DNA of 64,000 bases from Promethearchaeota archaeon (lineage in GTDB: Archaea; Asgardarchaeota; Lokiarchaeia; Sigyniarchaeales; SOKP01). A program made the position numbers and the translations under genes. The number at the start of each line of letters is the position of its first letter. Positions within the stretch are counted from its first letter, which is position 1. Of this stretch, positions 3,616 through 58,618 are shown piece by piece. The notes under the pieces are model-generated. The model ran no database searches. It saw nothing but the letters and a program-made list of their open reading frames with translations, and was not told the origin of the DNA. The stretch covers positions 135,966 through 199,965 of the forward strand of contig JAUWGH010000006.1 in the NCBI GenBank assembly GCA_030606485.1, written 5' to 3'.

Positions 3616-6600
3616 TTGGTTATTTTGAAAAAAAAAAATAGCATAAGTTATAAAAAAATTTTAATTCTATTCAGTTTAATACTTATATTCTCTTTAATTT
3701 TCATTACGCCTGGTATTTACACAAATAAAAATGGATATTTTAATAATCCTACTGATGAAACTAATACTGATGAAATCAATACTGATCTTCAGAATAAAGA
3801 TTTTAGGTCTCAAGGTATAACCTCCGATAATATTTATTCAGGAATTGGGGCTCCTTGGAATCTAACTCATTGGGCTAATCGAACGGATTATGATATCCCA
3901 GTAGATTTTACTAGTCCACTTATACCTAATGATGATGGTAAATGGGGTAGAATGTGTCCGCTTGTAATACAATCTAGTAAGGTTAATAGCGACTTATCGA
4001 ATTTCACTATCCTTTTAACAAATGATACACTTCCATCTGAAATGTTTAATGCAGATGGTCTTTACCCTGCATTAGATGGTGGAGGGGATATTCGTTTTTC
4101 GACCGATCTAAACGGTGACAACCTTCTTCCCTGTGAAATAGTCACATTTACAACTGATAACAACCCTGCTAACGGTAAAGCTGAGATTTGGGTTAAAGTT
4201 CCTTCTATTAGTTCCTCTACCGATACCACCATCTATGTCTGGTATAACAAACTTGGATACAACGAAGCTGCAATGAACCAACCTGCTGCGGATGATATTC
4301 TTGGTTCGGAAGCTGTGTGGTCAAATAACTTTGAGGGCGTTTGGCATTTGAATGAAAGTTCTGGGAGCGCAAAAGACAGTACATCTAATGGATATGATGG
4401 CTCTTTTCAAGGAGATTTACCAGACGCTCAAATTGGACAAATTGGGGAGGGACAAGATCTTGATGGAACCGGCGATTATGTAGATATAGGCGATGCAGGA
4501 ACTGGGATACAGACTATTGAGTTTTGGATGGAATCAGATGATCTTACTGATAGTTTGGATACTGATACTGGTTGGAATATTCCAAGTAATTATGATGATG
4601 ATTATTGGGATTGGGATTATCCAGGTAATGTCTCCACAAATAATAATCAATACGCATCAGAGCCCGATGCTAGTGGTTCACAAGATTGGTATGACTTTAA
4701 TTTTGGTATACCCGGCGGTTCTTCGATCAATGGTATTTGGGTACATATTGAAGCAAATGAAATGGGTGTGGGTACTGCTGGTGCAGACATTGAACTTTCT
4801 TGGAATGGAGGTAATTCTTATACCAGCACAGGTTATGGAGATGACTACTCTGGTTCTGATGTTAATTATTATTATGGTAGTTCATCAGATCTTTGGGGCA
4901 GAGTATCATGGGCTGATACTGAATTAAGCAACGCTAATTTTAGGGTTAGATTAACGAAAAATGGTGTAACAACTCCTAGAGTTGACCTTCTAAGGGTAAG
5001 GGTTTATTATACCATAACCAACGTTAACAGGAAAATAATTGATATAGATGGTACCGACCAGATAGAAATCGACGGAAGTACTGCTGATATACTTGCCACT
5101 AGTTTTCCAGGTACTACAACAATTTATGTAGACGGAGCAGTTGCATCTGGTGTAACAACAAACTGGCATCATGTTGTAATTACTGATACGACCGGAGTCA
5201 ATCCTTCTGATATGGATATTGGTCGAGTTTCATCAAGGTACTTTGACGGTATCATCGATGAGGTCCGGATCTCAGATACTGTAAGAAGTGCCGACTGGAT
5301 TAATTCACTATACAACAATCAAGATGATCCGAGCACCTTTGTTATTAACGGAACTCCAATAGAGGGCGGCATCATCTCAATCTATATTATCGAACAAATA
5401 TCTAATATTGTAGATATGCCTTTAGATCTTGGGTGGCAAGGTAAAAAATTAAACGCTACCATAAAGGACTTGTATGATAAAAGAAATTGGATCAATGGAA
5501 CTTTCCACGCTGGACCTGATGATAATGACCCTTCCTGTCCTGAAAATGATAGTATTTATCTTCAAAATTGGACTTATGGTGAATATGATGTTGTGGGTGA
5601 TTATAGTAATGATATGTCTGGAAATTATTTTGATAGCACAAACGATCCTTCTAACAATGGCAGTGATTGCTTGGAATTAAGAATGGATGGAGATGGTTTT
5701 GGATATGATAAATATGATAGATGTTGGTGGGAGTCGAATTTCACTTTGCCAAGGGGAAAGGTGATTGAGGGTGAAATAAATCTTGTGATATGTCCTTATA
5801 CGCAATATTACGAAACCCGTGAGTTTGGAACGCATTGGAGTGTTCAAGTTATCTTAAATGGTATAGTAATTGATGACAAGAATCTTATATGGTTAGAATA
5901 TAGTGGGGGTGGTGATTGGTATCCCTTGAAATTACAGTTAACGAATTGGTTAGACGATCCAATAGTATTTCCGGATAATGAGAAAAATATGAGCCTTAGG
6001 ATACAATTAATAAGAAATGGACCAACACTTAGTCACGGCCCGTATGGTTCATATCAACAAGTACTTTTTGATGACGTATCATTAATCGTAAAAACAGAGG
6101 TTAAACCTACTCAAATCGGCTTAAAAATGAACCAAACTGCTGTTATAGATACTTCAAATTGGGGTGAAGGCACTGTAGAAATAGATGGTGATTGGAATGG
6201 CACCCAGTTTCCTTTAGTGCACGCTAATTTTAGCAATGATGAGGTCTGGGCATTAGGTGATTATGATATCGATTTTAAAACGAATGTAAATCTTTTTGCG
6301 ACAAAACATACTCCAGAAACTAATTATGAGACAAATGCAGCTTCGTTAGGCACCGGGTTTTCTGTAAGTAATGATAGTTTAGTAAATTGGGAATGTTATG
6401 GGTATACTTCGGTCCCAACGGGATATGCCGAAACAGAAATGAGACTTGAATTTCCAACTGATGTTTATATCACTTGGGTTTCCTATCCTTCAGACCCGCT
6501 TATTAATAAATTAGATTTATGTGATAATTCAACTGCTGGACTTTTAATTGTTAACGTGTCCAAAATATCAGCTACACCAGATGGTTTTTGGAAGTTTGAA

Positions 6601-9600
6601 GCAATATCCCCAAATTATTTTGAGCAATTAAATATATATAACAATGCTACAGGTAGTTGGATCGAAGATAACGAATTTTTAAGTGGAGAATATATAAATA
6701 TTACTGCGAAAATAACGAATAGTCCATTGATATCTGCTTATATTTTGGATACTAAAGCAATTCTCCATGTAAGATTCCCAAATGGCACTATATGGACAGA
6801 AAAAACACAAGAAAAAAACCTTATTTCAAACGGTTTTGTTTATTTTGATTCTTTTCAAATACCTTCCAACATTCCTAATTATAAAGTAGGAGAATATGAT
6901 GCAATAATTTCGTGGAATAATTCTCATTCTATTTATGGGTTAAATGAAACTGGCATAATCTACAAAAAATTTACCGTAATTCACAATTCTACATTAATAC
7001 CTGACCAAAGCTATTACGCAGATATATTTGAAGGCACTTCAATAAATTTAAAAGTTTCATTTAATGATCTTAAAGATGGCAAGGCTATAGAGGGTGCTGT
7101 TGTATATACATATAATTTTACTCATCCTACTATAATACAGAATTTCAGTGAAATTAGTCCAGGTTATTATGTTTTTTTAGATTTTAATGTTAGTGGTGCT
7201 CCACAAGCTGGTGATAATATTATAACAATTTATGCAAATTCTTCTTTATATACGAATAATGAAGTTGATGTAACTATTGAAGTAATAAAAGCAACGACTC
7301 TTACTGTAGATAAGTCAATTTTATCTGTCCAGTGGAATGATAATTTTACAATCCAATTAAACTATACTGAGGAAGTTAGTGGGACAGGTATTGATACTAC
7401 ACCAATAAATAATTGGGTAGGAGAAACCCATACTGTTAGAATCTCTCAAGGAGTATATAACATAACTTGTAATAGTTCCGCATATGAAGTAAATAAACGT
7501 TATAATTTATATGTTGATTTTAATGAAACTGGTTATGAAACACAATCAATAACAACTATAATTGAAATTGTTGAAAGAGAAACATATATCGACGATATTT
7601 TCATAAATGGTAGTGATTGCACGACTAATAAATCTTATAATGTTAAAGCAGGAGAACTTTTGAATCTTACCGTAAAATATAGGGATATTGAAACAGGTGG
7701 GACTTTTATTAATAATGCTCTAGTAAAATTAATAGGAACGGGAATAGAAAAGACTTTTAACGAAAGGATATCATTCCAATACTATAACTTAACTTTAAAT
7801 TCAACAGAATTAGGTGTTGGCGTAAAGTTTTTAACTATTACTGCTCAAAAAGATAATTATACATCTGCTTCAGAATTGTTAACCATAACTGTTTTTGAAA
7901 GAGGAACTAATTATATTTTATATTTGAATGAAACTGATTCTACAAGCGATCCATCTTACCAACTAACTGATAACCAGCTCTTGAATATCACTGTCTCCTA
8001 TATAGATACAATATTGACGGAACATATTAGTGGTGCTACAGTGGATATAAACGGATCAGGAATCTCTAAACAATTTGTTGAGGCTTTCAATAATTATTCT
8101 GTAGAAATAAATTCGACAGATTTAAATCTAGGTGTAAATTTTTTAACTATCTATGCTCAAAAAGAAACTTATGAACCCCAATCAATACTGATTACAATAG
8201 AAGTAATACAAATAGAAACAGAATTAAATCTATATTTAGATGGAGAGGATAAAACAAGTGAACCATCAATTACAAAATATACAAATCAGAGCTTAAATAT
8301 TACAATATCGTATAGAGAGTTCGAAATACCCAATAAACATGTTAGCGGAGCTATAGTGGACATAAATGGATCAGGAATATCTGAGCCTTTATATGAGGCA
8401 TTCAATAATTATTCTGTGCTTATAAATACGACTAAATTAAATCTAGGAGCAAATTTTTTAACAATTTATGCTCGTAAAGATAAGTATGAACCACAAACGA
8501 TTTTACTTTCGATAGAGATAATACAAATAGAAACAAATTTAACATTATATAAAAATGGGATAGATATAACAGCTATACCATCAATTAAACAATACACAAA
8601 TCAAATTCTAAATATTACAGTATCATATAAAGAGGCTACAGGTCCCTACAAACATGTGAGCGGCGCTATAGTTGATATAAATGGATCGGGAATTTCAAAG
8701 GTTTTTAATGAATTAGGAACCAATTATTCAGTTCTTATTGATACTACAAATCTTAATCAAGGAGCAAATTTTCTGACAATTTATGCTCGTAAAGAAAACT
8801 TTGAGCCTCAAACGATTTTACTTACAATAGAGATAATACAAATAGAAACAGACTTAAAGTTATTTTTAAATGGAGTGGATAAAACAAATGAACCTTCTAT
8901 TGACGTAATTACACTTGAAACTTTAAATATCACTATAAAATATACCACTTATGGAACTGGAGTCCATATTAGTAATGCAACAATTGAATTATCTGGAAGT
9001 GGACTTTCGATAAATATAAGTGAAAATCTTGGTTTAAAGCAATATTCATTTATTATTAATACAATAGATTTAAACGTAGGATTTAATTTCTTAACAGTTT
9101 ATGCTCAGAAAAGCAATTATGAAGCTCAAACGATTTTAATCACAATACAGCTAATTGAAAGAAAAGCATATGATGAGATATATTTAGACAATGAAGATAA
9201 AACACTTGAAAAATCAATCGAAACTCCAATAGGTAAGGAGTTAAATATCACTTTTAAATATTTTGACGATATAACAGGAAATCACATTCCTCAAGCACTA
9301 GTACAACTTATAGGAGCAGGACATACTTGGAATTTTACGGAAAATAATTCATTAAAGCAATATTCGCTAATTATAGATACTACAGAATTAGATATTGGAC
9401 TTAAATTTCTAACCATATATGCTCAAAGGACATATTATCAATCTTCTTCAGAGCTTTTAGAGATAACTGTTAGACAAATAAAAACAAATATTACAACAGA
9501 ATCTGGAGAAGATGTAATAAATATACAAGCTGGTGAATCTTATACTCTAAGAATAACTTTACATGATTTAGATTTTGGAAGTATAATAAAGAATGCAACT

Positions 9601-10140
9601 GTTAGATATACATGGGAATTAGGACAAGGTTACCTTACAGATGATGATAATAATGGCATTTTTGAGGTCACATTAGAAAATATACCTGAAGGCACTTTTA
9701 CTATTACTTTCACTATTTTGAATGTAAGTGATGATTATTTATTTGAGCGAAAAACAATAACTCTAAATGTGGTTAGTCCTCCAGAAGAAACTCTAATATT
9801 TCTGATATTAACTATAGTCGCCATTGCTGCCTTTATTAGTGTCACCAGTTATTTCATAGCATATCAAAGAGTATTAAAGTATCCAAAACCTGTTAGAAAA
9901 ATTCATAAATTCAAGAAGACTTTAAAGAAGAAAAAATCTCCTGATGTTGAAATTCTCTCGAGTAAAGTTCTATTAAAAGCCCTCTACAATGAAGAATTAG
10001 ATCCTGTTGCTAAACTTTTTAAAGGGAAGATGAAATATGAACAACCAGAAAAACAACTAGAACTAAAACCATCAAAAGATGAATTAATTGATACTTTATC
10101 CGAAATATCACCTGAAGAATCCGAAAAAAATGAGAAATAA
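3616..10140 (+). CDS. Giant type-I membrane surface protein (DUF2341 + LamG/concanavalin-like + tandem beta-rich repeats)
   Basis: 2174-aa ORF with an N-terminal hydrophobic signal/anchor (ILILFSLILIFSLIFITPGIY). DUF2341-like block: GGGDIRFS...EIWVKVPSISSSTDTTIYVWYN. LamG-like block: WHLNESSGSAKDSTSNGYDG...FDGIIDEVRISDTVRSADWI. C-terminal TM (LIFLILTIVAIAAFISVTSYFIA) followed by a Lys-rich ~95-aa tail. Many N-x-S/T sequons. Confidence 0.85.
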   Translation: MVILKKKNSISYKKILILFSLILIFSLIFITPGIYTNKNGYFNNPTDETNTDEINTDLQNKDFRSQGITSDNIYSGIGAPWNLTHWANRTDYDIPVDFTSPLIPNDDGKWGRMCPLVIQSSKVNSDLSNFTILLTNDTLPSEMFNADGLYPALDGGGDIRFSTDLNGDNLLPCEIVTFTTDNNPANGKAEIWVKVPSISSSTDTTIYVWYNKLGYNEAAMNQPAADDILGSEAVWSNNFEGVWHLNESSGSAKDSTSNGYDGSFQGDLPDAQIGQIGEGQDLDGTGDYVDIGDAGTGIQTIEFWMESDDLTDSLDTDTGWNIPSNYDDDYWDWDYPGNVSTNNNQYASEPDASGSQDWYDFNFGIPGGSSINGIWVHIEANEMGVGTAGADIELSWNGGNSYTSTGYGDDYSGSDVNYYYGSSSDLWGRVSWADTELSNANFRVRLTKNGVTTPRVDLLRVRVYYTITNVNRKIIDIDGTDQIEIDGSTADILATSFPGTTTIYVDGAVASGVTTNWHHVVITDTTGVNPSDMDIGRVSSRYFDGIIDEVRISDTVRSADWINSLYNNQDDPSTFVINGTPIEGGIISIYIIEQISNIVDMPLDLGWQGKKLNATIKDLYDKRNWINGTFHAGPDDNDPSCPENDSIYLQNWTYGEYDVVGDYSNDMSGNYFDSTNDPSNNGSDCLELRMDGDGFGYDKYDRCWWESNFTLPRGKVIEGEINLVICPYTQYYETREFGTHWSVQVILNGIVIDDKNLIWLEYSGGGDWYPLKLQLTNWLDDPIVFPDNEKNMSLRIQLIRNGPTLSHGPYGSYQQVLFDDVSLIVKTEVKPTQIGLKMNQTAVIDTSNWGEGTVEIDGDWNGTQFPLVHANFSNDEVWALGDYDIDFKTNVNLFATKHTPETNYETNAASLGTGFSVSNDSLVNWECYGYTSVPTGYAETEMRLEFPTDVYITWVSYPSDPLINKLDLCDNSTAGLLIVNVSKISATPDGFWKFEAISPNYFEQLNIYNNATGSWIEDNEFLSGEYINITAKITNSPLISAYILDTKAILHVRFPNGTIWTEKTQEKNLISNGFVYFDSFQIPSNIPNYKVGEYDAIISWNNSHSIYGLNETGIIYKKFTVIHNSTLIPDQSYYADIFEGTSINLKVSFNDLKDGKAIEGAVVYTYNFTHPTIIQNFSEISPGYYVFLDFNVSGAPQAGDNIITIYANSSLYTNNEVDVTIEVIKATTLTVDKSILSVQWNDNFTIQLNYTEEVSGTGIDTTPINNWVGETHTVRISQGVYNITCNSSAYEVNKRYNLYVDFNETGYETQSITTIIEIVERETYIDDIFINGSDCTTNKSYNVKAGELLNLTVKYRDIETGGTFINNALVKLIGTGIEKTFNERISFQYYNLTLNSTELGVGVKFLTITAQKDNYTSASELLTITVFERGTNYILYLNETDSTSDPSYQLTDNQLLNITVSYIDTILTEHISGATVDINGSGISKQFVEAFNNYSVEINSTDLNLGVNFLTIYAQKETYEPQSILITIEVIQIETELNLYLDGEDKTSEPSITKYTNQSLNITISYREFEIPNKHVSGAIVDINGSGISEPLYEAFNNYSVLINTTKLNLGANFLTIYARKDKYEPQTILLSIEIIQIETNLTLYKNGIDITAIPSIKQYTNQILNITVSYKEATGPYKHVSGAIVDINGSGISKVFNELGTNYSVLIDTTNLNQGANFLTIYARKENFEPQTILLTIEIIQIETDLKLFLNGVDKTNEPSIDVITLETLNITIKYTTYGTGVHISNATIELSGSGLSINISENLGLKQYSFIINTIDLNVGFNFLTVYAQKSNYEAQTILITIQLIERKAYDEIYLDNEDKTLEKSIETPIGKELNITFKYFDDITGNHIPQALVQLIGAGHTWNFTENNSLKQYSLIIDTTELDIGLKFLTIYAQRTYYQSSSELLEITVRQIKTNITTESGEDVINIQAGESYTLRITLHDLDFGSIIKNATVRYTWELGQGYLTDDDNNGIFEVTLENIPEGTFTITFTILNVSDDYLFERKTITLNVVSPPEETLIFLILTIVAIAAFISVTSYFIAYQRVLKYPKPVRKIHKFKKTLKKKKSPDVEILSSKVLLKALYNEELDPVAKLFKGKMKYEQPEKQLELKPSKDELIDTLSEISPEESEKNEK
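7561..9480 (+). repeat. Six tandem in-frame coding repeats (309-330 nt, ~103-110 aa) inside the giant surface protein
   Basis: Unit boundaries read at about 7561, 7891, 8200, 8515, 8830, 9148 and 9470. Recurring blocks are ...LNITxxY..., HVSGAIVDINGSGIS, NYSVLI.TT.LN.GANFLTIYA.K..YEPQTILL.IE.IQIET. Degenerate flanking copies lie at ~7300-7560 and ~9480-9780. Confidence 0.85.
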
Positions 10141-20970: not shown

Positions 20971-21408
20971 TTAATTGAAAATATCTTCTACTTGCTTTAG
21001 ACTTTTTCCATGTTTTTTTAATTTAGAAGGAAGTTTTTTAATGATTTTTTCATCTGCAGTGCAAAAAATTTTCCCTGATGCAATACTTATTCCAAGATAG
21101 GAGGCATCATAAATCGATATATCATGGTCAACAGCAATTTTAATCATGTGTTCACGTATCTCATTTTTTATCGTAATTACTTTAAATCCGTAGTTCTCTA
21201 AACTCTCCCCAGCATCATTAAGTTCACTTGGATCAAACAATTTACTATATTTCAAGGCATTCATGACTTCAAAGTATAATAAGGATGGAATGAATAATTC
21301 AATTTGCCCATCTATGAACTTATCTCGCAAGAATATTGCTTTATCTGATTCATTTTCTTCTATAAACCACTTAACTACCACACTAGCATCTATAACTATT
21401 TCGATCAT
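20971..21408 (-). CDS. vapC: PIN-domain toxin (VapC)
   Basis: N-terminal VIDASVVVKW, internal YDASYL, C-terminal CTADEK acidic positions. 145 aa, 23 nt downstream of its antitoxin. Confidence 0.8.
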   Translation of the reverse strand: MIEIVIDASVVVKWFIEENESDKAIFLRDKFIDGQIELFIPSLLYFEVMNALKYSKLFDPSELNDAGESLENYGFKVITIKNEIREHMIKIAVDHDISIYDASYLGISIASGKIFCTADEKIIKKLPSKLKKHGKSLKQVEDIFN

Positions 21409-21431
21409 TTAATATTCCACTTTTTTCTCTT

Positions 21432-21662
21432 CTAATGTCTTTCTTCCCTGAATTTACGAATAATGTTTATGCTATTGAAATTTTCGGGAGCTTTTTTACG
21501 GATCTTTTCGTTCAGCAAGACAGCTTTAGCTTTATTCATCTCGGTTTCATTCTGAATTTCCATTTTAATTGCTTTGCGAATTATCTCACTCCAGTTAAGA
21601 TGCTTAAGTGCATCCATCTTCTTTTTTAATTCAAGATCGATTCTTACACTTATGTTTGTCAT
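21432..21662 (-). CDS. vapB: Ribbon-helix-helix antitoxin (VapB/CopG-like)
   Basis: MTNISVRIDLELKKKMDALKHLNWSEIIRKAI is an RHH beta-strand plus helices. 76 aa, upstream of the PIN gene on the same strand. Confidence 0.7.
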   Translation of the reverse strand: MTNISVRIDLELKKKMDALKHLNWSEIIRKAIKMEIQNETEMNKAKAVLLNEKIRKKAPENFNSINIIRKFREERH

Positions 21663-47851: not shown

Positions 47852-48163
47852 GAAAAAATCTTTTTATTTTATTTCTCTTTTAAACTATACTTCAAATCTC
47901 AGAAAAAAAAGAATTTTTAGCAGTGTTTTGAGTTTTTATTGTATCAACTGTTCGTTGAAATTTTATAAAAATCTTTAAAAGCCCATAAAAATCAAAAAAT
48001 CATACCTCTTGCTGTTTTTAAAATTTTATAAAATTAATTAACACTAATACCTTTATTTCTTTATTTGCGTTATAAATTCAGAGCGATTGTTGGGAACTGG
48101 AGTTATTAAAAGAAGAGTTAGAAAATTCTAAATTTAAATAAAAGTATTTTAAAGAATTATAAA

Positions 48164-49683
48164 ATGATTCAGACCATAAAATTTCGCTTGCATCCGACAC
48201 CTTCACAAGAGATCAAATTGCACGAGATTTTCACAATTTACAATAAAACAAAGCATATTGGATACAAACTTTTATTTGGACTGAAAGATATCAAAATTCC
48301 CAAACGGGAGAAGAGGAATATTGTCCAACCGCAATAAATGGATATCTGTCGAAATAACCCTTACGTTAATAGCATTTTAATTGAAAACGAAACGACTCTT
48401 GCCCAACAGCAAACTTGGAACGAGAAGCGTAAGAAATACATGAAGAACCAAATTGACACCATAACCGAGAAAATTGAACAAATAAAACAGAAGATAAGAA
48501 GGATAAAAGATTAAAAGGGCTTTATTCGAGGCTTTCTTCCGTTCAAAATAAACTAAATTTATTGAAGATCAAACCAGTAGTATTTGGTACAAAACAATTA
48601 TTCTATAAGAGAACCTTAAAAAGGGTCCATCGTGACGAGTTTAAAATCAAAAGGGACTCATCTTTTTGCTGTATTGGAAAAAAACAAGGTGTGAATTTAA
48701 ACCTTAAGGAGCTTCCCGACAAAACTCTGAAGGTTCGTACATTCTTAAAAGAAAAGGAAAAGAAGTGGCTCATGATACCATTTACCGTTAATTGCACACA
48801 AGAGAGACGATTTAACGAAATACTTCATGCTGAGAAATACACTGTAATCGTTTTGAGAAGAGTTAAAAAAGGAACAATAAAATATTTTGCCCATGTGTCC
48901 TATAAGATTCCAGAATTAGATATAGAATGCGGTTTTGGAAATGGAACAATTGGGCTCGACTTAAATTATAACTTCGCTTCGCTCTGTAATATTGGAAAAA
49001 CCGGCAATTTCAAGAGTTATCATGAAATTCAATTCAGGAATTTGCACTCATATCGAAAGAATAAGCGTGCAGATTATATCAGCTATAAAATGGATAAAGT
49101 TTTGAACTATTGTATCAATAAAAAAAAAGGATTGGTGATTGAAAACTTATCCTTTGAACAAGAGTTTTCTTACAATAAAAAGCTCAATAGAAAATTGAGC
49201 AATTTCAAATCAACCGCATTGGACTTACTAGAAAGAAAATGCCTGAAAAAAGGCGTTGCCATAAGAAAGGTGCACCCCGCATACACCTCTCTTATTGGAA
49301 AATATAAATATTCACGCTCATATAACTTATCAACTCACGTATTGGCGAGTTATGTGATCGCTCGAAGAGGTTTAGGATTTAAGGAATCTGTTCCTGCCGT
49401 TTATAAGCGGTTGCTCTCACAAGTCGGGGGCTTCATAAAACCCCGTTTGAAAAAGGGCAGTCCCTACTATGAATGGTCGCAAGTCCACGACTTCTTCAAG
49501 TATAGAGGGATAACTTCCTTCAAGACTTCCGAAGTAATGCGAAAAGTATTACAAATGAAGTATGTCTTGAACTCGGTGACGAGCGCACAGCCCGATAACC
49601 TTAAGGCTGGTCTTTCCAATAGCGGAAAGATTGATGATTGGAATAAATTTTGGAATTTTATAGAAATTACCAATTTTTTATAA
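48164..49683 (+). pseudogene. tnpB: TnpB-like (IS200/IS605 OrfB, RuvC-fold) gene, disrupted at the 5' end and lacking the Zn-ribbon
   Basis: The ATG at 48164 gives MIQTIKFRLHPTPSQEIKLHEIF (TnpB-type N-terminus). There is an in-frame TAA at 48335-48337 and a frame change within ~48478-48514, then an intact 373-codon ORF at 48562..49683. That ORF has GLDLN (RuvC-I), VIENL (RuvC-II) and PAYTS. The CxxC...CxxC ribbon is absent, and STHVLASYVIARRG replaces the usual ADxNAAxNIxxRG. Confidence 0.65.
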
Positions 49684-49687
49684 ATAA

Positions 49688-50068
49688 TTAGAAGGTTGGC
49701 ATATCTCTACTTGCTATAACATTAACTTCCAAATTATGAATATTTTCAACTAAAATATCACCTACTTTAATTGGTGCCTTGACCTTAATACTTGAGAGTT
49801 CTTTAATTATTTCAAATACCGATTCTTTTGGGATTGGTTTCTCAGTTCTTACTGGAATAATGGATAGAAATCCATCCTCAACTCTCATGGTAGCTGTAAC
49901 AATTCTTTTTGGTTCAAAAAGTTCCTCCTTTGCATATTCCTCTCCTCTTTTACACCCAAAACCTATAATCTTAACCTCTCCATCAACGTTCTCGGCTGTG
50001 ATCTCACAACCAGTTGGACATACTATACATCTAATAACCTTTTTATCTTTTTTGCTACTCTCTGACAT
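49688..50068 (-). CDS. DUF1667 Cys-rich protein (third subunit of the GlpA-like oxidoreductase operon)
   Basis: CIVCPTGCEI...GFGCKRGEEYA. 126 aa, 3 nt downstream of the preceding gene. Confidence 0.8.
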   Translation of the reverse strand: MSESSKKDKKVIRCIVCPTGCEITAENVDGEVKIIGFGCKRGEEYAKEELFEPKRIVTATMRVEDGFLSIIPVRTEKPIPKESVFEIIKELSSIKVKAPIKVGDILVENIHNLEVNVIASRDMPTF

Positions 50069-57853: not shown

Positions 57854-58618
57854 ATGGGGCGCTATTATTTGGAAAATCATGTCCAATACAAAGGCAAAAA
57901 GTATAAATTAACAAAAGGACTTGCTTTAAATCTAAACAATAAAGAAATTAATGAAATTACAGAGATTAAAGGACTTGAAAATCTTACAAATTTGCAAAGA
58001 TTAAATCTTAGAAGCAATAATATTACAGAGATTAAAGGCCTTGAGAATCTTAAAAATTTAGTCCATTTAGATTTATGCTTTAATCAAATTTCTGAAATTA
58101 AAGGTCTTGAAAATCTTAATAAATTAATATTGCTAAATCTTGAGAATAATCAAATTTCTGAAATTAAAGGACTTGAAAACCTTACTCATTTAAATTATCT
58201 ATATCTTAATGGAAATAATATTTCTTTAGAAACATTTGATTATATTGGGGAAGGCTTTAGTATATTTGAATATGTGAAAAATCCTTATAATTATGTGGAA
58301 TATTGTCGTAAATTAAAGGAACAAAAAGTTATGGAAAAGAAATTTGATATAAGTATAGAATTTCAAGCAAGAAATTACGCACTGAATATAATTAATACAT
58401 TACTTAACAAGGAAAATCCAACTAAAAAAGATATCAAATATTTTGGAAAAACGGTTGAAATTATGCTTAAAAATTTGGAACAAGATGTTCGAATCTTATG
58501 TATGAAATTCATTGATGACGTCATTCAAAATAGTGATATAAAAACCTTTCCAAGATTAAAAAAATATTTAAAAGTAGGGTTAAAAACAGTGTGGAGCGCA
58601 CTAAATCTGATGTTTTAA
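57854..58618 (+). CDS. Leucine-rich-repeat protein (22-aa LRRs), no signal peptide
   Basis: Repeats of ITEIKGLENLxNLxxLxLxxNx. The C-terminal ~130 aa are helical and unassigned. Confidence 0.8.
   Translation: MGRYYLENHVQYKGKKYKLTKGLALNLNNKEINEITEIKGLENLTNLQRLNLRSNNITEIKGLENLKNLVHLDLCFNQISEIKGLENLNKLILLNLENNQISEIKGLENLTHLNYLYLNGNNISLETFDYIGEGFSIFEYVKNPYNYVEYCRKLKEQKVMEKKFDISIEFQARNYALNIINTLLNKENPTKKDIKYFGKTVEIMLKNLEQDVRILCMKFIDDVIQNSDIKTFPRLKKYLKVGLKTVWSALNLMF
57956..58219 (+). repeat. Four tandem 66-nt units encoding the LRRs
   Basis: Unit starts read at 57956, 58022, 58088 and 58154 (exact 66-nt period). Each begins ATTACAGAGATTAAAGG or ATTTCTGAAATTAAAGG. Confidence 0.85.

Follow-up and report, generated by a model that had tools for sequence, protein, structure and literature searches.

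A probable decayed IS607-family insertion sequence with a RIIIr-4-like TnpB and a candidate guide RNA in an Asgard archaeon

Within a stretch of 64,000 nucleotides from a Promethearchaeota archaeon (contig JAUWGH010000006.1; hereafter the window), positions 47939-49697 of the forward strand quite probably represent a decayed, non-autonomous element of the IS607 family that carries a gene for a RIIIr-4-like TnpB protein together with a candidate guide RNA. The insertion sequence is 1.76 kb long and has lost its tnpA gene by deletion (Table 1). The odd features of the TnpB protein, which are a histidine in the active site and the lack of a zinc finger, belong to an already described large branch of the TnpB tree, and the finding is in that respect mostly ordinary. 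For annotation purposes, the element in the window is best labelled a dead insertion sequence rather than a possible regulator.

Table 1. Positions of the element, its parts and the adjoining host gene in the window.
Feature	Position	Strand	Basis or remark
Whole element	47939..49697	+	Homology to L001 and empty site; TT crossover dinucleotide counted at both junctions (47939-47940, 49696-49697)
Left end (LE), ~95 nt	47941..48035	+	blastn of LE against loci, junction census, empty site
tnpA remnant, 70 nt	48072..48141	+	Alignment and blastn against L001
tnpB pseudogene	48164..49683	+	Unbroken product would be a TnpB of 506 aa, His-type and without zinc finger; intact version at the same locus in L061/L064
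Premature stop TAA	48335..48337	+	T48336A turns the Leu58 codon TTA into a stop
1-nt deletion, frameshift site	48489..48491	+	AAA to AA relative to same-locus contigs; span is the A run plus one flanking base
RuvC-I Asp266 codon (GLDLN)	48958..48960	+	Invariant in family; aligned to Cas12f catalytic Asp motif (GIDL)
RuvC-II Glu327 codon (VIENL)	49141..49143	+	Invariant in family; aligned to Cas12f EDL motif
Candidate omega (guide) RNA scaffold	49318..49697	+	Synonymous-site suppression, RNAalifold, pair counts with controls, single-sequence fold, sharp conservation edge
His392 codon, RuvC-III position (NLSTHVLASYVIARRG)	49336..49338	+	Invariant in family
Host DUF1667 gene	49688..50068	-	Last codons and stop now supplied by the right end of the element
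Predicted guide segment (GGCATATCTCTACTTGCTAT)	49698..49717	+	TnpB model; runs antisense to the DUF1667 3' end

The type of the element is revealed by a copy at another locus (L001), which is 95% identical to the element in the window and has an intact serine-recombinase tnpA gene directly upstream of tnpB. This gene (positions 4328-4975 of L001) encodes a protein of 215 amino acids with HTH_17/MerR and Resolvase domains. Homology between L001 and the window begins at 47935 and stops at 49697, and it falls into two matching blocks, 47935-48102 (90% identity) and 48100-49697 (95.6% identity), with 575 bp of internal tnpA sequence missing in the window. In the remnant, the first 10 codons of tnpA are joined at GAG (48100-48102), the deletion junction, to the final 12 codons and the stop, and the start codon has mutated from ATG to ATA (48072-48074). 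The statement in a first-pass annotation of the window that no tnpA is nearby holds for an intact gene, but not for this remnant.

Seven loci (L001, L017 and L045-L049) have an intact gene for the serine recombinase upstream of tnpB, a fragment of it is located at a contig end in L057, and about 45 other loci contain solo tnpB copies with the same left end. Although this majority of solo genes is what would be expected of an IS1341-type element, that is a tnpB gene of the IS200-IS605 group moved by a Y1 (HUH) transposase, we consider such an origin highly improbable. Every transposase gene that accompanies tnpB in these loci codes for a serine recombinase and lies immediately 5' of it, and the insertion is free of duplication with a 2-bp core that is shared with the target, as in IS607 (PMC6188088). 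The earlier suggestion of a recently decayed IS1341-type element was essentially right about the recent decay, with the open reading frame still intact in other assemblies of the locus, but the type is IS607 with a serine recombinase.

The ends of the element were defined with the help of an unoccupied target site in a related genome (L063), which reads AGTTTTTATTGGCATATC, whereas the occupied junctions in the window read TTTTTATTG followed by TATCAAC on the left and AGAAGGTTG followed by GCATATC on the right. Comparison of the two places the insertion point between TA and TT, with no target duplication. The dinucleotide TT is common to the element ends and the target, which together with the duplication-free insertion conforms to the IS607 type, and judging from the junctions TT appears to be the crossover dinucleotide. 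A left end at 47935, as indicated by the comparison with L001, was rejected; the empty site shows that TTTATT was already present in the target, and the element proper therefore begins after TATT. The invariant TATT directly 5' of the left end (47937-47940), which also pre-existed in the target, is a candidate target motif or TAM, where both this motif and the TT crossover are based on one empty site and some 20 junctions, with an AT-rich genome as background, and the motif refers to the junctions of the Loki group alone, the left-end pattern matches in Borrarchaeum-group loci being unreliable. According to blastn searches, the left end is common to autonomous and tnpA-less copies.

Members of the IS607 family, such as IS607 from H. 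pylori, IS1535 and ISC1926, use a 2-bp exchange sequence, which is GG in IS607 itself (Chen et al., 2018, PMC6188088). The Asgard elements share with this family the order of a tnpA gene for a MerR-like HTH and serine recombinase protein followed by tnpB, the absence of both terminal inverted repeats and target-site duplications, and a 2-bp exchange core. They differ in that the crossover apparently occurs at TT within TATT rather than at GG, in that most copies, including the one in the window, are without tnpA, and in that the right end is located just 14 nt past the tnpB stop codon. A search for the subterminal TnpA-binding motifs of IS607 elements showed that TTTTATAAA-like motifs are repeated in the left and right ends; such motifs are common by chance at 30% GC. 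Neither tblastn nor nhmmer identified further copies or solo ends within the 64-kb window, and the short blastn matches to the ends are AT-rich noise.

The family is multi-copy within genomes, with many copies of the element in one MAG, and several contigs end inside the element ends, as a repeat would produce. Flanks and 3' sequences differ between copies, and no recurrent neighbour gene was found in the loci for which flanks were inspected. The sequence features in the window are those of a transposon and not of a domesticated gene. TldRs are immobile, tied to specific host genes and have lost their catalytic residues. A nuclease-inactive, possibly RNA-guided derivative analogous to such repressors had been put forward in the first-pass annotation. 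On this reading the gene would be a domesticated, nuclease-dead repressor with a fixed location, directed by its guide to the promoter of a host gene, and the Asgard family resembles TldRs in its TnpB ancestry and non-canonical RuvC-III position, while no intact transposase is found beside tnpB in the window. However, the tnpA remnant, the defined ends, the empty site in a relative, the multiple copies in unrelated flanks with variable 3' sequences and the lack of a conserved neighbour all speak of mobility; the Asp and Glu of an invariant Asp-Glu-His set are kept, and the window copy is itself broken. We therefore give a TldR-like role almost no weight.

The tnpB gene in the window is split into three open reading frame pieces, 48164-48337, 48338-48514 and 48562-49683. 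The in-frame TAA, the frame change within ~48478-48514 and the intact last codons that had been noted previously were all seen again here, and the change of reading frame from 1 to 3, which lies between 48476 and 48514, could be placed more precisely from contigs of the same locus (Table 1). The locus is represented in two other assemblies (L061 and L064/L069), in which the same element contains an intact open reading frame for 506 amino acids, at identities of 99.2-99.7% for L061 and L064. All three same-locus contigs have a T at 48336, and the affected Leu58 is invariant in an alignment of 68 family sequences and nearly so in a second alignment. Likewise, the intact same-locus copies read CAGAAAGAT where the window reads CAGAAGAT, a run of three A having been cut to two. 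Since the open reading frame is intact in the other assemblies, the stop codon and the deletion are private to the window sequence, which indicates very recent decay, with sequencing error as the less likely cause. Programmed frameshifting or readthrough at these sites was rejected because the same-locus and paralogous copies are continuous open reading frames.

Could the gene nevertheless be intact in reality, with the TAA and the missing A introduced during sequencing or assembly? The same-locus contigs with intact frames show very few differences from the window, and the loss of one base in an A run is typical of error sites. The stop codon, however, arises from a T to A substitution and not from a homopolymer error, and the reconstructed protein differs from the L061 protein solely at the stop position and by two non-conservative private substitutions (V183E and S448R). 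The four private changes in the window all fall within the element and all depart from the family consensus, whereas ~0.8 kb of flanking sequence is free of such changes, a pattern that is better explained by relaxed selection on a dead copy. We consider the error explanation unlikely.

The TnpB-like nature of the protein, recognized already in the first-pass annotation, is supported by matches above the cut-offs to the Pfam domain HTH_OrfB_IS605 (PF12323; E=2.9e-5, 23.9 bits versus a cut-off of 21) and NCBIfam TIGR01766 (37.4 bits versus 32), and the reconstructed sequence of 506 amino acids matches hundreds of proteins, most of which are of the same length; the match to NCBIfam guided_TnpB (49.9 bits) is below the cut-off of 100. 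Foldseek searches with the predicted structure retrieved Cas12k, Cas12f, TnpB and Fanzor2, with probability 1.0 for the latter three. The family profile had no match at E<=1 among PDB sequences, and only a broader profile (A6) reached Cas12f (E ~2e-8), with Asp266 and Glu327 aligned to the catalytic motifs. A PAYTS block follows VIENL, and the profile alignment to Cas12f ends at YTS, where the zinc ribbon would start. The CxxC motif is absent throughout the protein and from every Asgard family member sampled, so that there is no C4 zinc ribbon, in agreement with what had been read from the window initially, as is the His codon. Over codons 1-380, the dN/dS ratio is 0.11.

At E<=1e-10, the family has distant relatives in 1092 protein clusters, of which 34 were sampled; named relatives were all archaeal. 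Asp, Glu and His without CxxC pairs were found in 33 of the 34 sampled relatives, while the remaining one has an Asp in the His392 column. Judged from these sequences, the Asp-Glu-His, zinc-finger-less state is an invariant, selected trait of a very large clade and not a loss. Because both PDB profile searches left the RuvC-III region unaligned, the equivalence of His392 to the canonical Asp rests on the motif context, the one Asp-bearing relative and the published description of a clade. In this clade, called RIIIr-4, a His takes the place of the RuvC-III Asp and the C4 zinc finger has been lost, and its members are predicted to be catalytically active (Altae-Tran et al., 2023, PMC10691335), a prediction that the authors base on conservation in the clade. 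By description rather than by tree, the Asgard family matches RIIIr-4 in both of these defining features. It differs in having an additional C-terminal tail of ~90 amino acids, and in being part of a mobile serine-recombinase element, whereas immobile members linked to RHH/MazE were highlighted in the original study (PMC10691335).

The replacement of the third Asp could also mean that the protein binds or nicks DNA under RNA guidance instead of cutting both strands, with some other role in the transposon such as regulation or copy-number control. No cleavage by a TnpB of the His clade is reported in PMC10691335 or PMC10278001, and in a survey of 59 orthologs, activity was highlighted for a single ortholog with a rearranged catalytic site, which belongs to RII-r5; some orthologs process their own RNA without cleaving double-stranded DNA (PMC10278001). 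On the other hand, activity is predicted by the authors who described the clade (PMC10691335). Furthermore, Asp266 and Glu327 are strictly retained, His392 is invariant, and the element resembles other TnpB-bearing insertion sequences in its many intact copies and low dN/dS ratio. Histidine is a normal metal ligand in nucleases of the RNase H fold, as in the DEDH tetrad of the Argonaute PIWI domain and His983 of Cas9 RuvC, and in the third position it might yet take part in catalysis. A role as a binder or nickase is in our view distinctly unlikely.

Yet another conserved feature is an RNA structure of ~380 nt that overlaps the last ~125 codons of tnpB. Eleven helices within 49318-49631 are followed by an AT-rich tail of 66 nt that ends in an invariant AAGGTT, right after which conservation drops sharply in 46 of 47 copies. 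Identity at synonymous codons climbs from ~0.5 to 0.75-0.89 over the last ~95 codons, and dS falls from 1.05 to 0.31 in the 3' overlap, a ~3.4-fold suppression of synonymous change. Over 73 base pairs, 97.5% of the cells are paired, and double changes were found at 29 covarying pairs (199 cells, compared to 21-48 cells in slid controls), a level that was reached in none of 500 shuffles. The single-sequence fold has a z-score of -5.9, and many G-U pairs are consistent with the sense strand. Searches of Rfam at gathering and permissive thresholds gave nothing relevant, RAGATH-18 included. This RNA is very likely an omega guide RNA, with a structure derived from covariation and a role inferred computationally. 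The predicted guide, for which a length of 20 nt was assumed by analogy with other TnpBs, is the very sequence that makes up the empty site to the right of the insertion point.

The ~90-residue C-terminal tail of the Asgard family coincides with the RNA scaffold. It is conserved and yet predicted to be disordered (pLDDT < 50), and outside the family it was not found in relatives, only in the family's own fragments. An RNA that overlaps a gene can give a protein tail the appearance of conservation. Compared with characterised TnpB-omegaRNA systems (ISDra2 TnpB, and ISFba1/IS607 TnpB with its RAGATH-18-derived RNA; PDB 8exa, 8h1j and 8iaz), the Asgard family is alike in its fold, in a scaffold that extends over the 3' part of tnpB and stops at the right end, and in a proposed TAM that is T-rich and adjoins the left end. 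Unlike these systems, it has an Asp-Glu-His triad without a zinc ribbon in a larger protein and a much longer predicted scaffold, almost all of it within the open reading frame.

Quite probably, a TnpA serine recombinase supplied in trans by an autonomous copy inserted the element between TA and TT in the last codons of the DUF1667 gene, by a 2-bp crossover, apparently at TT, that left the target unduplicated. Its own tnpA was later lost through the 575-bp internal deletion, with the tnpB nonsense mutation and the 1-nt deletion arising afterwards, in the window sequence only. On the model of TnpB systems that have been characterised, transcription running past the right end into the flank would yield the scaffold together with the guide. 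TnpB and this RNA might then recognize and cut the empty donor site, preceded by TATT, after excision, and repair from a sister copy would restore the element and so retain it in the genome. The occupied site would be spared because AAGGTT, and not TATT, precedes the guide match. As a tentative extension, for which our confidence is limited, this TnpB, with its His and no zinc finger, may function as an RNA-guided nuclease native to Asgard archaea, in which the whole ~380-nt scaffold is translated as part of its own open reading frame, the disordered tail of 90 amino acids is kept mainly by selection on the RNA or by co-evolution, and mRNA and guide RNA are mutually exclusive fates of the transcript. 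If true, this would open the RIIIr-4 clade to functional work for the first time and would supply a TATT TAM as well.

The wider family is an abundant and still mobile element of the IS607 type in the archaea that are most closely related to eukaryotes. It offers a clean natural test case for DNA cutting by zinc-finger-less Asp-Glu-His TnpBs, in which the protein is intact and the RNA scaffold defined, the guide boundary is sharp, and both a candidate TAM and an empty site are at hand. The candidate guide RNA shows strong covariation and has no counterpart in Rfam, where it could be entered as a family of its own.

The insertion has also left a trace in the host gene, in that the DUF1667 protein ends with ...DMPTF* in the window and with ...DMPIKT* at the empty site.

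The tnpB gene consists of three collinear pieces (see table), which are broken first by a TAA stop in frame (48335-48337) and then, within an A-rich stretch, by a change of reading frame from 1 to 3, as the first-pass annotation had described. Its TnpB-like identity is borne out by the Pfam model HTH_OrfB_IS605 on the first piece (E=2.9e-5, over the cut-off) and by NCBIfam TIGR01766 on the last (37.4 bits; cut-off 32), where guided_TnpB scores 49.9 bits, under its cut-off of 100. Joined, the pieces yield a 506-aa protein with several hundred matches, mostly of exactly 506 aa, in MAGs of Promethearchaeota and of Hermod-, Thor-, Hel-, Borr- and Sifarchaea; the top match is 94% identical and all others at most 74%. 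The window has a GC content of 29.8%, and neither tRNAs nor Rfam matches were found in it.

Features of the element in window coordinates
Feature	Position	Detail
tnpB piece 1	48164-48337	
tnpB piece 2	48338-48514	
tnpB piece 3	48562-49683	
GLDLN Asp codon	48958-48960	
VIENL Glu codon	49141-49143	
THVLASYVI His codon	49336-49338	
Private change 1	T48336A	Leu58 to stop
Private change 2	48489-48491	AAA to AA
Private change 3	T48710A	V183E
Private change 4	C49506A	S448R
RNA helices	49318-49631	
AT-rich tail, 66 nt	after 49631	to invariant AAGGTT at 49697

The gene belongs to a mobile transposon with a link to a serine recombinase. The closest relative, encoded on contig L001, lies directly 3' of a 215-aa HTH_17/MerR and Resolvase protein, an IS607-type serine-recombinase TnpA. 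Two blastn blocks connect the contigs (window 47935-48102 with L001 4191-4358, 90% identity; window 48100-49697 with L001 4934-6535, 95.6% identity), and 575 bp, nearly all of tnpA, are therefore absent from the window. The remnant keeps the first 10 codons, with the start ATG changed to ATA (48072-48074), a GAG shared at the deletion junction (48100-48102), and the last 12 codons and stop, ending at 48141. The homology stops 14 nt past the tnpB stop, at ...TTAGAAGGTT. Thus, the earlier statement that no tnpA is nearby holds for an intact gene but misses the remnant, and the suggested decayed IS1341-type element was right about the decay but not about the type, which is IS607.

Among 59 surveyed loci, the recombinase is intact upstream of tnpB in seven (L001, L017, L045-L049) and present as a fragment at the contig end in L057, while about 45 carry a solo tnpB. 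The solo copies share a left end of ~95 nt, ~150 nt 5' of the ORF, and in the Loki-group copies the homology between copies ends 13-16 nt past the stop codon. The ORF is intact in 43 of 50 copies, and one MAG of Ca. Borrarchaeum weybense holds more than 12 elements. On contig L008, a partial second tnpB 3' end (2296-2597; residues ~398-499) with a left-end-like segment close by sits ~1.4 kb upstream of the full copy, which suggests tandem or nested remnants. Family members also lie on contigs L007, L045 and L058, which bear the labels of Patescibacteria, Deferrimicrobium and Bacteroides MAGs; this is probably due to contaminated bins and not to transfer into bacteria. A 656-aa member, P0121, has an N-terminal extension of ~175 aa (query residues 2-484 align to 176-652), which could stem from a fusion or from a start that was called wrongly.

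Exact look-ups of both flanking proteins located the same chromosomal locus in other assemblies. In L063 (GCA_030609505.1) the site is empty: a 119-aa gene is followed directly by the DUF1667 gene, and the sequence across the junction is AGTTTTTATTGGCATATC. In the window, the left junction is ...GAGTTTTTATTG|TATCAACTG... and the right one ...TTAGAAGGTTG|GCATATC...; TATT was therefore already part of the target, both junctions share TT, and no bases were duplicated. This pattern, at a TA|TT target, is the hallmark of a serine recombinase acting by exchange over a core of 2 bp. IS607 likewise exchanges over a 2-bp core, although at GG rather than TT (PMC6188088). In the Loki group, virtually every copy has TATT directly 5' of the element, and 46 of 47 copies end in AAGGTT, with no conservation between copies in the flanks outside these motifs. 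Through the insertion, the DUF1667 protein ends in ...DMPTF* instead of ...DMPIKT*. The N-terminus of this protein (window 50029-50068) is MSESSKKDKKVIR in the window and MSESSKEDKSSEDKKVIR in L063, and this indel, not the insertion, mostly explains the length difference of 126 versus 132 aa. Several independent contigs (L065, L066, L068, L070, L071) break ~30-80 nt inside the left or right element end (window-equivalent 47968-47971 and 49619-49668), as is typical of assemblies at a multi-copy repeat.

In L061 and L064/L069, this site is occupied by the same tnpA-less element, with 99.2-99.7% identity and an intact 506-aa ORF. Relative to these, the window has four private changes, all of them inside the element and each departing from the family consensus, with no flank differences in the ~0.8 kb compared. 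From this sequence comparison, we take the private changes to mean that one copy has decayed very recently; less probably, the two ORF-breaking changes are sequencing errors. At the same locus, one contig (L062/L067) has a 441-aa ORF and ~25 substitutions tightly clustered at window-equivalent 49468-49552 (RNA/3' ORF) versus the window and L061/L064, which resembles the outcome of gene conversion by a paralog or of chimerism in the metagenome assembly.

The GLDLN, VIENL, PAYTS and THVLASYVI motifs lie where they had been placed, and the missing CxxC ribbon and the His at the third RuvC site proved to be shared by the family. In alignments of 22 and 68 sequences (60-94% identity), Asp266, Glu327 and His392 never vary, and CxxC pairs are absent from all members; dN/dS is 0.11 over codons 1-380, showing that the protein is under purifying selection. 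When 1.84 billion cluster representatives were searched with a profile, 1809 matched at E<=0.001, of which 1092 reached E<=1e-10. Among 34 diverse representatives (20-33% identity to P0001, the L001 protein), 33 have Asp/Glu/His and the remaining one has Asp at the His position; the paired CxxC of a zinc ribbon occurs in none of them, and their consensus is VNPAYTSxIGxxKYxxxYGLSxHxAAAxVIARRGLGF. The few named relatives are archaeal (Hodarchaeales, Thermoprotei). A profile of the distant relatives matches Cas12f structures (E about 2e-8), with GiDlN over the catalytic Asp and viEdL over the catalytic Glu; the alignment ends at YTS, where the zinc ribbon starts. The AlphaFold2 model (pLDDT 77; residues 1-410 confident) matches Cas12k, Cas12f, TnpB (8h1j, 8exa, 8iaz) and Fanzor2.

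The two traits are exactly those that define RIIIr-4, a major TnpB clade with RuvC-III Asp replaced by His and the C4 zinc finger lost (Altae-Tran et al., 2023; PMC10691335). The combination is thus a published, clade-wide feature and not new, and the locus itself is a new member of an already described TnpB type. The clade was predicted to be active, as argued from conservation (Altae-Tran et al., 2023), and among orthologs with a rearranged catalytic site, the only one highlighted as active belongs to RII-r5 (Nety et al., 2023; PMC10278001). The suggestion of a nuclease-dead, TldR-like repressor is unsupported. For the His-type clade, the element family could offer a well-defined test case.

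The right end of the element coincides with the end of a conserved, structured RNA on the sense strand. Synonymous codon identity, compared among the 43 intact copies, lies at 0.44-0.55 over most of codons 1-380, 0.67 over codons 381-420 and 0.75-0.89 over codons 411-500, while amino-acid identity stays flat at about 0.65-0.72; dS drops from 1.05 to 0.31 toward the 3' end. RNAalifold predicted a multi-helix structure from 51 copies, in which 73 pairs in 11 helices are paired in 97.5% of cells, versus 39-52% in slid controls. Both sides have changed in 29 pairs and 199 cells (21-48 such cells in slid controls), and none of 500 shuffles attained the observed values. G-U pairs are frequent and fit the sense strand, and window 49310-49697 folds into the same helices (MFE -121.8 kcal/mol, z = -5.9). 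The RNA matches no Rfam family and is a candidate new RNA family. The last ~90 residues of the protein (416-506) are encoded within the RNA region; their sequence is conserved, yet they are modelled at pLDDT <50. In the search of cluster representatives, this tail is absent from relatives outside the family and matched only by the family's own fragments. It may be conserved largely because of the RNA.

By analogy with characterised TnpB systems, this RNA would be the omega RNA, and transcription running on into the flank (GGCATATCTCTACTTGC... in the window) would yield the guide. The donor joint after excision, TATT plus the guide match, could then be cut by TnpB, leading to restoration of the copy, and the occupied site would be spared with AAGGTT standing where TATT would be. 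Since the protein is broken in the window, only the RNA could possibly remain active there, and then with TnpB in trans.

Elsewhere in the window, a 315-nt (105-aa) unit is repeated 2.8 times in tandem, with 76% identity (8021-8901), inside a 2174-aa ORF (3616-10140, +). Neighbouring ORFs of 145 and 76 aa (20971-21662, -) look by eye like what we take to be a PIN/VapC-type toxin and a small antitoxin. Tandem repeats of 66 nt (22 aa) at 57949-58225, inside the ORF 57854-58618 (+), have a consensus that in one frame presumably resembles a leucine-rich-repeat motif.
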